Source: a virus
Taxonomy: Duplodnaviria > Heunggongvirae > Uroviricota > Caudoviricetes
Reading direction: 5' to 3' (one strand)
Length of the DNA stretch: 8,857 nt
IMG/VR virus record: IMGVR_UViG_2534681772_000005
Location: 1 to 8,857 of that record
Position numbers and translations under genes: made by a program. This document shows, in pieces, positions 6,030-8,477 of the stretch (positions within the stretch are counted from its first letter, which is position 1; each line of letters opens with the position of its first letter). The notes under the pieces were generated by a model that did not search any database, was not told the DNA's origin, and saw nothing but the letters and a program-made list of their open reading frames with translations.

Positions 6030-7070
6030 TTAAACTCCCAACATGCTTGCAAATGCCAGCGGCTGGCGAATGATTGCGCCCCAGGTGCCACCGGTTTTCT
6101 TTTGTTTGTACGCGGACAGGTCAACAACAACCGGATGCGCACGCATTTTTTCGGTAAATGCGCAGTAGCCGGTGTCCTGACCATCCAAATCGTCGGCGAT
6201 CAACTGAACCAGTTCGCCGGATTCGGTTTTGTACTCGACAGCAGTAACAACGCGCAGGTTCGGGAAGTTTTTCTTCAGCTGATCAGACACGTTGACGTTG
6301 TACATGTTGGTCTTGGTCAGATTTGCTTCTGACTCTGGACTCATCGCCAGCGTCATCTTGCTGTCTCGCTCAACGTACCCCTTGGTCTGCTTCACTAACT
6401 GCATGTAAAGCTCCTGGATATCGTCATACACCGCCTGACCGTCTTTGGTTGCCCAGGTGGTTCCGCCGCTCGCACCAGTTGCACCCGGGGTGATTGATGC
6501 CGGAAGGTTAGGGTCATTCAGAATGCCGTAGTTCTTCAGGCCAGCAACGCCGAAGAAGTAGGACTTGTTCTGAAACTTATTCAGGGTCAGCGCAGAAGCA
6601 GTATTCAGTTGTTGAGCCCATGCAATGCGGCCTTCACCGTAACGGTCAAGTTCCAGCTCACCCCACTGAGTAATGGTCTGGTACAGATAGGACTCACGAG
6701 CAACCCAGTTGACGTTAGCATTTACCTGCCCATTATTGTTGTAGTCACCATAACTGGAAACCTGACCCGTTGATTCCACAACCGGAAATTGTGCGGTCAT
6801 GGTGGTCCAGTCTCCCTTCTTCGTTTCCCCCAGAATTTCCACCGCTTTCATCGGAGTGACAAGGATGCGAATCAGTTCCGGGTCAACGTAATTAGTGAAG
6901 TACCATGGAATGCCAGAGTTGCTGGTTGTTACCAGTGAAGGCTGAGAGTCCATTGCATAGGAATAGCTATTAGCAACAGCATCCGTCAGATAGGCTTTGG
7001 CTTCCGGAAGGATTACACCGTAATCTCGCTCAGCCATAGCTTTATGTTGTAAAAATTCTGCGTTATTCAT
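6030..7070 (-). CDS. Putative major capsid protein
   Basis: 346-aa ORF, the size class of HK97-fold or lambda E-like major capsid proteins; lies between the scaffold-like/head-protein genes and the head-completion genes; GGAG RBS 7 nt upstream. Confidence 0.6.
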
Positions 7071-7073
7071 GTA

Positions 7074-7553
7074 TTAGCTCCAGGTGCCCATCTGAATCAA
7101 TTCGCCAGCCTCGCCAGCACTGCCAACAACAAATTTTGTTTCAACGTAATCCGAGATTGACGCCCCGGCATCGCCAGCGGTAATGGTTCCATCTGACAGT
7201 TTGGCGAAAATCTTCTGCCCTACGGTTGCCGCACCGGCAGTTTTCACCCAGTAGTCGCCAGCAGTCATCAATGTCATCTGAACTCCAGGCTGAATAGTCA
7301 TAGATGATTCACCAAGCCATGTGGTGACAGACGCCTGCCCTTCCCGATGAACGAAACCGGCAGGAGCACCGGTTCCAGTGTTATTGACAACACCATTGCT
7401 TACCCATGCAAAGCGACCAACAACAACCCCATTTGCACCGGCAACAAGAGCGCCCTCACCTGCAAGAAGACTTGCTTTAGGGTTAGCCGAAGCGAAATCC
7501 CCTTCAACCCCAGGCGCCTGTTGCTGATTAATTACACTTTGAAAGCCACTCAT
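7074..7553 (-). CDS. Gly/Ala-rich phage head protein (possible decoration or accessory capsid protein)
   Basis: 159-aa ORF between the scaffold-like and capsid genes; GGAG RBS 7 nt upstream; composition dominated by G/A/V/T. Confidence 0.45.
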   Translation of the reverse strand: MSGFQSVINQQQAPGVEGDFASANPKASLLAGEGALVAGANGVVVGRFAWVSNGVVNNTGTGAPAGFVHREGQASVTTWLGESSMTIQPGVQMTLMTAGDYWVKTAGAATVGQKIFAKLSDGTITAGDAGASISDYVETKFVVGSAGEAGELIQMGTWS

Positions 7554-7556
7554 TTC

Positions 7557-8477
7557 TTAGCTCCGTTTCAGTTTAGTTGCGCCAGGAAATGCCTTGGCGA
7601 AAGAATTGGTTGCAGCAGAATCCATCCCCATACCATGAGATGGTTTGCGAACTACCGCTTTCTGGCTGATAGCAAATTCAACCATCGATTTAAGTGCTGA
7701 AGGATGAACGCCTTTATGTTCGGCACCGATTGAATCAAGAGCAAAGCGATAAATAGACTCTGCGGAATCCATAGCGACCAGACTCACATCACCAACCAAA
7801 GCACGAACACATTCTCGAGCCTCATTGGCTTGACGGATACGCCCCATCACATTCTCTTCAGCTTTTCGAATCAATGCGGCATCCATAGCTGCTTTATTCT
7901 CATCATCGTCTTCATCCTCGGCAGTCTTTTTATCCTTGCCGTCATCATCTTCGTCTTCCGCTTCTTTGCGGTCACGATCGCGATCCTTTCGCTCACGTTC
8001 TTCACGCTCTTTTAGTTCATCCTCTTCACGTTTCAGACGCTCTGCTTCTGACTCATTATCTCTCTCAGCCTGAGTGGCTTCGTCTTCAACAACCTTTTGC
8101 ACTTTCTTTTCCACTTCTTCTGGCTTCTCATCACTTGCCAGCATCGGCGTGATAACTGCCATCAACTTTTTAGTAAGTTCTGACATTGATTTCATTCCTG
8201 TTGGTATTGAATCCCCGACAACAACGTCGGATCCGGCTCTTCCCTCTGTTACGAGAGCAACGTGGTTCCCGACGATATCGCGCATTACACCATCGTATGG
8301 CTGGCCTTCATGCACGCCGGGGGTCATGTCAGCTACATATCTGTAGGCCGACGAAAGTTCTTTCTTCTCGTCTGTCTCGATTCCAGCGATAGAATCTGCG
8401 TCCCATACGACAAGCGAGTTCTTGAGATAAGTCCCGTCAAACTCAGCATCAGTACCAGTAGAACCAACCACAGCCAT
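7557..8477 (-). CDS. Putative head scaffolding/maturation protein with an acidic charged region; possibly 5'-truncated by the IS
   Basis: 306-aa ORF with an extremely charged middle (residues ~115-196, KREEDELKEREERERKDRDRDRKEAEDEDDDGKDKKTAEDEDDDENK) typical of scaffold proteins. First ATG at 8477 has only a weak RBS. The frame stays open upstream through the IS junction at 8506/8507 until a stop at 8534..8532. Confidence 0.5.
   Translation of the reverse strand: MAVVGSTGTDAEFDGTYLKNSLVVWDADSIAGIETDEKKELSSAYRYVADMTPGVHEGQPYDGVMRDIVGNHVALVTEGRAGSDVVVGDSIPTGMKSMSELTKKLMAVITPMLASDEKPEEVEKKVQKVVEDEATQAERDNESEAERLKREEDELKEREERERKDRDRDRKEAEDEDDDGKDKKTAEDEDDDENKAAMDAALIRKAEENVMGRIRQANEARECVRALVGDVSLVAMDSAESIYRFALDSIGAEHKGVHPSALKSMVEFAISQKAVVRKPSHGMGMDSAATNSFAKAFPGATKLKRS
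7890..8135 (-). repeat. Low-complexity acidic/charged coding tract (E/D/K/R-rich, RD and ER dipeptide runs) within the scaffold-like gene
   Basis: Translation of this segment is about 80 residues of almost pure E/D/K/R; the DNA shows reiterated GAAGA/GATGA/CGNGA units. Confidence 0.6.

Follow-up and report, generated by a model that had tools for sequence, protein, structure and literature searches.

When a Shine-Dalgarno sequence (SD) lies within the end of the upstream open reading frame (ORF) and the stop codon stands 3 nt before the next ATG, the arrangement is the one known since the early 1980s as a textbook coupled junction. The efficiency of coupling peaks when stop and start are separated by -4 to +3 nt, and the galT/galK and rplK/rplA junctions, both spaced by +3 nt, have been shown to be coupled (reviewed in PMC12548453). 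At galT/galK (GGAGTGTAAGAAATGAGT), where coupling was established experimentally with an optimum at +3 (PMC12548453), the SD GGAG within the end of the upstream ORF is followed by TAA, the spacer GAA and ATG AGT. At E. coli rplK/rplA (GGAGGACTAAGAAATG), a coupled pair encoding stoichiometric partners (PMC12548453), the SD, which falls within the final codons of the gene upstream, is likewise followed by TAA, GAA and ATG. Concerning phage heads, that of E217 contains 535 capsid proteins and 180 cement trimers (~540 copies) (PMC10329688).

The DNA analyzed here, called the window, is a stretch of 8,857 nt (IMG/VR record IMGVR_UViG_2534681772_000005) whose minus strand carries a phage head module. 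The phage junction compared with the two bacterial ones reads GGAGCTAAGAAATGAGT. The first junction of the module (junction 1) and galT/galK are identical over 12 consecutive bases (TAAGAAATGAGT), and junction 1 and rplK/rplA share CTAAGAAATG. However, galT/galK belongs to a host metabolic operon, its SD lies 2 nt from the stop instead of 1 nt, and its coupling is experimental whereas that of the phage junctions is predicted. The rplK/rplA junction differs by its longer SD (GGAGGA) and by the autogenous translational repression exerted by L1; nothing pointing to such control was seen in the phage module. The finding is thus real but ordinary, and the junction layout was already known.

Three consecutive junctions of one design

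Four consecutive minus-strand genes are concerned. The DUF2213 gene (prohead protease/scaffold-type, 7557..8506), which was named "scaffold" in the earlier note, is truncated at its 5' end. It is followed by the gene of a cement/minor capsid (decoration) protein of 159 aa (7074..7553), formerly the 'Gly-Ala' gene, by the major capsid protein gene (6030..7070, 346 aa) and by a 115-aa head-module gene of unknown function (5679..6026). The cement protein matched Pfam families PF23982 (6e-31) and PF22758 Phage_cement (9e-23), and its RefSeq counterpart is named 'structural cement protein Gp24'.

Two minus-strand 14-mers, GGAGCTAAGAAATG at the DUF2213/cement boundary (7564..7551) and GGAGCTAATACATG at the cement/capsid boundary (7081..7068), were found where the earlier note had placed them. 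The GGAG of their identical context is an SD, which had not been recognized in the earlier note and which explains most of the identity. The arrangement GGAGCTAA-NNN-ATG is an ordinary ribosome-binding site (GGAG) lying in the two terminal codons of one head gene, followed by the stop of that gene, three bases and the start of the next. At junction 1, the SD core of the cement gene (7561..7564, minus strand) is contained in the last two DUF2213 codons, CGG AGC, 7 nt before the ATG, and the boundary itself (7551..7559) consists of the DUF2213 stop TAA (7559..7557), the spacer GAA (7556..7554) and the cement start ATG (7553..7551). At junction 2, the SD core of the capsid gene (7078..7081, minus strand) is contained in the last two cement codons, TGG AGC, again 7 nt before the ATG, and the boundary (7068..7076) consists of the cement stop TAA (7076..7074), the spacer TAC (7073..7071) and the capsid start ATG (7070..7068). 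A third junction, next in line and absent from the earlier note, repeats this design between the capsid gene and the 115-aa gene with a +3 gap (6038..6024, minus strand; GGAGTTTAATTCATG, that is, GGAG TT TAA TTC ATG), and its GGAG lies 8 nt ahead of the ATG.

All three junctions display a purine-rich run able to pair with the 3' end of the 16S rRNA, 5-9 nt upstream of the start, as is characteristic of an SD. The best duplexes with the anti-SD had energies of -5.8, -5.6 and -6.8 kcal/mol for junctions 1, 2 and 3, respectively. On the coding strand, 7 of the 23 GGAG occurrences lay no more than 16 nt upstream of one of the 12 start codons, where 0.54 was expected (a 13-fold enrichment).

The pattern GGAGCTAANNNATG was matched twice in the window, exclusively at junctions 1 and 2, and the count was still two when one mismatch was permitted. 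In dinucleotide shuffles, 0.19 matches were expected and two were reached in 2 of 200 sequences. This null model exaggerates the coincidence, because 7 of the 8 common bases are functional signals (GGAG as SD core, TAA as stop). When the SD, the TAA and the equal spacing are taken as given, a single additional base (C) is common to the two junctions. GGAGC is preferred over GGAGG in 5 of the 7 SDs of the window, and is also found at both junctions of Aeromonas phage 4_D05.

Outside the 8 common bases, no similarity between junctions 1 and 2 was detected in either flank, and their identity arose by convergence towards identical signals and not by duplication. The shared 8-mer could otherwise be a duplication or a recombination joint serving the mosaic exchange of head modules, and the adjacent genes do diverge unequally (DUF2213 93% and 79% identity, cement 90% and 87%, in the related loci L016 and L017). 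Unequal divergence is nevertheless expected under different protein constraints, the gene order is invariant and 8 bases are too short for homologous exchange. As the similarity stops at these bases on both sides, this very improbable origin was ruled out.

Conservation among related phages

The earlier note had proposed to check whether the motif is conserved in homologous modules, and this was indeed observed: GGAG(C/T)TAA is kept at both junctions in all IMG/VR relatives whose cement protein is at least 64% identical. In these relatives, the spacer varies in sequence and length. At junction 1, spacers GAA, GCA, CC, TT, TC and C were encountered, with the stop and the SD retained. At junction 3, relatives possess GGAGTT or GGGGTY followed by the stop and a spacer of 1-3 nt.

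Part of this conservation occurs at the protein level: even distant relatives preserve Trp as the next-to-last residue of cement (TWS, SWG, TWA), and the scaffold-type protein has a basic KLKRS tail that may be functional too.

One could thus consider that the C-terminal Arg-Ser and Trp-Ser are required by the proteins and that their GGAGC spelling is incidental. The conservation of this Trp and of the KLKRS tail agrees with such a constraint, but the codons themselves make the explanation improbable. In the module, CGG represents 10% of the Arg codons and AGC 14% of the Ser codons. CGG and AGC nonetheless persist at the junctions, with CGG AGC retained at junction 1 in diverged relatives, although six-fold-degenerate codons are retained in only ~30% of cases in lineages of 58-69% identity. 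The rough joint probability of this retention is ~1e-5 if the lineages are independent; the relatives being phylogenetically related, the value is indicative only. Furthermore, in Klebsiella phage RCIP0114 (CGA GGT TAA C ATG), the Ser is replaced by Gly and the Arg codon is changed as well, and the SD (GAGG) is kept in a shifted register, which constitutes a compensated change. The 13-fold enrichment of GGAG before starts and the presence of the same GGAG(C) in non-coding spacers of distant phages also argue against the protein constraint. GGAG is therefore both enriched before starts and conserved beyond the coding constraint, as is typical of an SD.

The order DUF2213, Phage_cement/XM1_gp53, major capsid, deduced from Pfam matches, is that of the E217/Bcep781-type head module, and it is the same in nine annotated phages. 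Pseudomonas phage E217 and the Bcep781/AP22 (Obolenskvirus) group thus possess DUF2213, cement/minor head and major capsid genes in the same order as the window, and the Pfam families concerned carry the names of E217 and XM1. In every gene-annotated phage of this group that was compared, a purine-rich SD-like run precedes the annotated start at both junctions; it is GGAG in most of them, and otherwise GGGG, GAGG, GGAC, AGGA or AGGGG. In contrast to the window, most of these phages have the stop ahead of the SD (TAA-GGAG-N7-ATG) or spacers of 36-58 nt. In the distant Aeromonas phage 4_D05, Pseudomonas phage Orisa03, Acinetobacter phage AP22 and Burkholderia phage phiE058, the SD and the tight spacing are retained, with the stop placed before the SD or overlapping the ATG (TAA-GGAG-N7-ATG, TAATG, ATGA). 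The GGAGC-TAA-N3-ATG form is specific to the enterobacterial prophage lineage. A scan of genome contigs for the cement protein yielded only 3 loci.

These comparisons also bear on programmed stop-codon readthrough. The +3 gaps keep all four ORFs between 8477 and 5679 in one reading frame, and readthrough of the in-frame TAA-NNN-ATG at three consecutive junctions would generate scaffold-cement-capsid fusions. However, the frame relation is lost in relatives, which present 1-nt or 2-nt spacers and TAATG or ATGA overlaps. No RNA structure was found downstream of the stops, and TAA followed by G or T, as here, is a context in which termination is efficient. The in-frame relation not being conserved, readthrough fusions, the most improbable of the possibilities considered, were ruled out.

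Mode of initiation at the junctions

The RNA around the three junctions was folded and compared with shuffled sequences. No structure beyond that of the shuffles was observed in 91-nt folds (z of +0.35, +0.97 and +1.21) or in 70-nt folds (z of +1.63, -0.01 and +0.78). Coupling by RNA unfolding, of the type known from MS2 coat/lysis and f1 VII/IX, was ruled out, as no sequestering structure exists at these junctions. Since folding in the initiation regions did not exceed that of shuffles, the downstream genes need not rely on upstream translation for their own. Any coupling would thus proceed by reinitiation and would not be obligatory.

Each motif very probably represents a translation initiation region fitted into a gene boundary, of the termination-reinitiation type represented by galT/galK and rplK/rplA. 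GGAG acts as the downstream gene's SD while being encoded as Arg-Ser in the DUF2213 protein or as Trp-Ser in the cement protein. A ribosome ending at the TAA would still cover the start codon that follows, the SD lying just behind, and the terminating ribosome, or its 30S subunit, could reinitiate without leaving the mRNA. Since no RNA structure masks it, the SD could also recruit free 30S subunits independently. The likely benefit would be the production of scaffold, cement and capsid proteins in matched, high amounts. We infer from the layout that reinitiation takes place and sets this stoichiometry.

A tentative alternative, to which we give clearly less credit, is that these are independent ribosome-binding sites. 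GGAG would recruit free 30S subunits, while the short distance between stop and start would result solely from the compaction of a phage genome, with no functional coupling. The initiation regions are indeed unstructured and accessible, an SD of its own precedes every downstream gene, and relatives tolerate gaps between -4 and +58 nt at these junctions. On the other hand, a start at +3 is physically covered by the terminating ribosome, measurable coupling is generally obtained when stop and start are -4 to +3 nt apart (PMC12548453), and the nearly identical galT/galK and rplK/rplA junctions are coupled experimentally (PMC12548453). The translational coupling announced in the earlier note is backed by the +3 spacing and by the layout, which resembles those of galT/galK and rplK/rplA. 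It is not demonstrable from sequence, and independent initiation is equally possible at these sites, because no structure closes the initiation regions and an SD of its own serves every downstream gene.

A stronger version of the termination-reinitiation reading, which we regard as rather unlikely, is that the SD in the last two codons was selected as a tether holding the terminating 70S ribosome, so that the same ribosomes would make scaffold, cement and capsid at a fixed ratio. If this were true, the C-terminal Arg-Ser and Trp-Ser of two structural proteins would be dictated by an RNA signal and not by protein function, and the preference for GGAGC over GGAGG could reflect tuning of the tether.

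The window as a prophage remnant and its annotation

All the genes of the window are co-oriented, with intergenic gaps of -32 to +12 nt. The stop-start spacing is +3 at the three consecutive junctions and -4 or -1 at five more, and co-oriented neighbors spaced by -4 to +3 nt have the geometry of coupled pairs (range from PMC12548453). The five overlaps quoted in the earlier note were all correctly positioned on the minus strand, three being ATGA (1259..1256, 3814..3811 and 4326..4323) and two TGATG (1880..1876 and 5237..5233). It did not mention the further gaps of +12 (5666), +11 (2312) and -32 (4700), nor a -1 frameshift site at 1495..1489. No Rfam family was matched anywhere in the window at gathering thresholds.

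The window is an 8.2-kb prophage remnant, whose phage DNA (338..8506) is truncated on either side by an IS3-family copy, the two copies being in inverted orientation. On the left, an IS3-family end including the start of orfA (1..337, minus strand) interrupts an SLT-domain (tape-measure-like) gene. On the right, the same end, inverted (8507..8857, plus strand), interrupts the DUF2213 gene and has taken the place of all that lay upstream, the late promoter included. The remaining DUF2213 protein covers only positions 81-167 of the 167 of the Pfam profile; the intact gene of E. coli TW10590 measures 1227 nt (408 aa). The ATG at 8477 is thus an internal DUF2213 codon and not a real start.

The intact relative in TW10590 has the features of a lambdoid late operon (Q antitermination from pR'). 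Its Q gene is annotated, and directly after Q comes the promoter-like site TTGACA-18-CATAAT (19188..19159, 11/12), followed by lysis, terminase, portal, head and tail genes, all co-oriented. It departs from this model in that the structural genes are of the E217/Bcep781/AP22 myovirus type and not lambda-like. In the window copy, IS insertion has led to the loss of Q and the promoter. The single late operon proposed earlier is acceptable as regards the co-orientation and the short gaps, but not for the IS-bounded copy itself, which is devoid of Q, of the late promoter and of the DUF2213 5' end. Because this unit is an IS-bounded remnant without promoter, its junction signals are probably idle.

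As for the claimed absence of internal promoters and terminators, consensus matches were no commoner than in shuffles: 8 promoter-like matches were counted in the window against 9.6 expected, and 12 terminator-like ones against 8.7, in scans that are too weak to exclude real sites. On the minus strand, all these matches were weak and within ORFs. However, in the intact relative, a terminator-like hairpin lies directly upstream of the DUF2213 gene, so that the late unit there is not free of terminators and presumably depends on antitermination by Q. A literature search for transcriptomes or translatomes of related (Obolenskvirus-type) phages found nothing relevant.

The junctions are of little importance for discovery, and their practical value lies in annotation. 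The junction SDs confirm where the cement, capsid and 115-aa genes start, and the start of the "scaffold" ORF at 8477 is recognized as not real. Finally, with the window identified as an IS-bounded, promoterless prophage remnant, claims about expression belong with the intact prophage.

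Shine-Dalgarno sites at the head-gene junctions

The minus strand encodes a DUF2213 protein of the prohead protease/scaffold type, of which the C-terminal two thirds are present (7557..8477), followed by a phage cement or minor capsid protein (7074..7553; PF23982, 6e-31; PF22758, 9e-23), by the major capsid protein (6030..7070) and by downstream genes for E217-type neck, sheath (DUF3383) and tube proteins. The 14-mer GGAGCTAAGAAATG (7564..7551, minus strand) spans the DUF2213/cement boundary (junction 1), and GGAGCTAATACATG (7081..7068, minus strand) the cement/capsid boundary (junction 2). 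Both are exact, as claimed in the earlier note, which had described a repeated motif at two consecutive gene boundaries; the overlaps that it listed elsewhere are also exact (ATGA at 1259, 3814 and 4326; TGATG at 1880 and 5237). Within the window, GGAGCTAANNNATG matches these two junctions only, even when one mismatch is allowed, with 0.19 matches expected by chance (dinucleotide shuffles). A third junction in a row, absent from the earlier note, has the same design: GGAG TT TAA TTC ATG, between the capsid gene and a 115-aa gene (junction 3; 6038..6024, minus strand).

At junctions 1 and 2 the frame is xGG AGC TAA, and the upstream gene ends in CGG AGC (Arg-Ser) and TGG AGC (Trp-Ser), respectively. 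Seven of the eight bases common to both are accounted for by the Shine-Dalgarno (SD) core and the TAA stop; the single C is the sole extra coincidence. A duplication or recombination joint was rejected, as the flanks of the two junctions are unrelated to each other.

GGAG lies 7 nt before the ATG at both junctions and pairs with the 3' end of 16S rRNA at -5.8 (junction 1) and -5.6 kcal/mol (junction 2). Among 23 coding-strand GGAG in the phage DNA, seven are located within 16 nt upstream of the 12 start codons, versus 0.54 expected. This pairing and this enrichment establish GGAG as the SD of this module. A C follows five of the seven sites (7564, 7081, 5676, 1891 and 1268, minus strand) and a G none; a C at this position adds no pairing with 16S rRNA. 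Aeromonas phage 4_D05 has GGAGC at both of its junctions, and it recurs in several further relatives, even in non-coding spacers. The preference may be due to chance.

Since three gaps measure exactly 3 nt each, four consecutive ORFs (5679..8477, minus strand) share one reading frame. Comparison with relatives, which do not keep this relation, suggests that it is probably incidental. Stop-codon readthrough was discarded because the frame is not conserved.

Conservation of the junctions in relatives

The earlier note had proposed that conservation be checked in homologous modules, and 50 IMG/VR loci and one Pluralibacter MAG were surveyed as close relatives. Every relative with a cement protein of 64% identity or more retains GGAG(C/T)TAA at junction 1 and, at junction 2, GGAGCTAA, with two partial exceptions, and the spacer varies (GAA, GCA, CC, TT or TC at junction 1; TAC, TCA, TCG, CA or ATA at junction 2). 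In one exception, the relative L031, the upstream protein is one codon longer, which creates a TAATG overlap, and junction 2 carries GGAAC; in the other, Klebsiella phage RCIP0114, the sequence is CGA GGT TAA C ATG, with GAGG still 5 nt before the ATG. Junction 3 shows the same behaviour in relatives.

Pure protein constraint on the upstream genes could be invoked for the identity of the junctions. It is, however, contradicted by the compensated variant of RCIP0114, by GGAG(C) in non-coding DNA of distant phages and by codon retention. CGG and AGC represent 10% of Arg and 14% of Ser codons in the module, and in lineages at 58-69% identity a conserved Arg, Ser or Leu residue keeps its codon in only about 30% of cases, so that the retention of CGG and AGC goes far beyond amino-acid constraint (joint probability ~1e-5 on the assumption, which does not hold, that the lineages are independent).

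In Aeromonas 4_D05, both junctions 1 and 2 are TAAGGAGC-N7-ATG, and in Pseudomonas Orisa03 both are stop-GGAG-N7-ATG; Acinetobacter AP22 has stop-GGAG-N6-ATG and stop-GGAG-N7-ATG, respectively. In Burkholderia phiE058, the stop precedes a weaker GGAC at junction 1 (gap 12), and GGAGC lies within the ORF at junction 2, with an ATGA overlap; Bcep1 and Bakoly have 36-58 nt spacers at both. The stop position thus drifts among distant phages; the feature that they have in common is an SD-like run before each start, tightly spaced in most. The junction motif is a real, conserved, functional-looking signal.

The proposed late operon and an intact relative

The proposal of a single operon without internal promoters or terminators is partly supported. 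Inter-gene gaps of -32 to +12 nt leave no room for intergenic signals, and consensus scans of the window, which cannot prove absence, gave 8 promoter-like (9.6 +/- 2.9 in shuffles) and 12 terminator-like matches (8.7 +/- 2.8), those on the minus strand being all weak and all inside ORFs. Against it stands a terminator-like hairpin in an intact relative. A lambdoid prophage in E. coli TW10590 (locus L001) matches positions 338..8508 with 100% identity; its Q, lysis, terminase, portal, head and tail genes are all co-oriented. A T run follows the best terminator-like hairpin of this prophage, GGCCGCTACTGCGGCT, which is located in the gap of 134 nt immediately before the DUF2213 gene; because of this hairpin, its late unit probably relies on Q antitermination rather than on a lack of terminators. 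The sole strong promoter-like site of this relative, TTGACA-18-CATAAT (11/12; L001 19159..19188, minus strand), directly follows the Q antiterminator gene and is, from its sequence, a candidate late promoter. A literature search found no transcriptome of a related phage.

The hairpin and T run (L001 12228..12213) come after an unannotated 30-codon ORF (L001 12229..12321, minus strand, outside the window) and some 20-30 nt ahead of the start of DUF2213. This ORF encodes a hydrophobic peptide, MIEVLWSLGLVLIFGCLMIALLKIAMSKRK, and begins in an ATGA overlap with the stop codon of the head-morphogenesis gene.

Positions 1..337 and 8507..8857 are the same IS3-family end, inverted relative to each other (332-point local alignment, 335 bases), which makes the 8.2-kb phage segment a composite-transposon-like or IS-rearranged prophage remnant. 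Its breaks fall at 338 in the SLT-domain gene and at 8506 in the DUF2213 gene (intact protein, 408 aa; Pfam profile positions 1-80 missing), the ATG at 8477 being an internal codon of the latter; Q and the candidate late promoter are lost from this copy. Each IS end carries the start of orfA, reading outward from the phage DNA. The right-hand IS junction occurred in no complete E. coli genome of the collection searched.

Only one long overlap occurs in the block: a 125-aa E217 gp28-like collar gene, whose annotated start is a GTG at 4700 (minus strand), shares 32 nt (4669..4700) with the end of the gene before it; where the collar gene really starts is uncertain. The 135-aa gene (ORF 1471..1878), which lies between the tube gene and the tape-measure-like gene, contains an in-frame slippery heptamer, T_TTT_TTA (1489..1495, minus strand), six codons before its stop. 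The -1 frame continues as ORF 1256..1474, whose TGA overlaps the next gene's ATG, and RefSeq annotates this region as a separate 67-aa ORF. The arrangement looks like the conserved G/GT-type tail-chaperone -1 frameshift.

Possible translational coupling

Spacings of -4 to +3 nt give the most efficient coupling, the downstream gene's SD contributes to it, and two models have been put forward, RNA unfolding and ribosome scanning/reinitiation (PMC12548453). Among the first demonstrated cases were galT/galK and rplK/rplA, both at +3 (PMC12548453); in MG1655 these junctions are GGAGTGTAAGAAATGAGT and GGAGGACTAAGAAATG, respectively, versus GGAGCTAAGAAATGAGT in the window. RNA unfolding is not indicated, since fold energies at junctions 1, 2 and 3 were not below those of shuffles, either over 91 nt (z +0.35, +0.97, +1.21) or over 70 nt (z +1.63, -0.01, +0.78). 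Independent initiation at each gene, with no coupling, is possible. The best reading is SD-assisted termination-reinitiation on top of ordinary SD-dependent initiation, and we infer that coupling occurs and sets stoichiometry. Matched output of partner proteins would be a plausible benefit; the E217 head contains 535 capsid proteins and 180 cement trimers (PMC10329688). The motif itself is a standard junction, with the SD in the ORF, a stop, a short spacer and a start; this design is already known.
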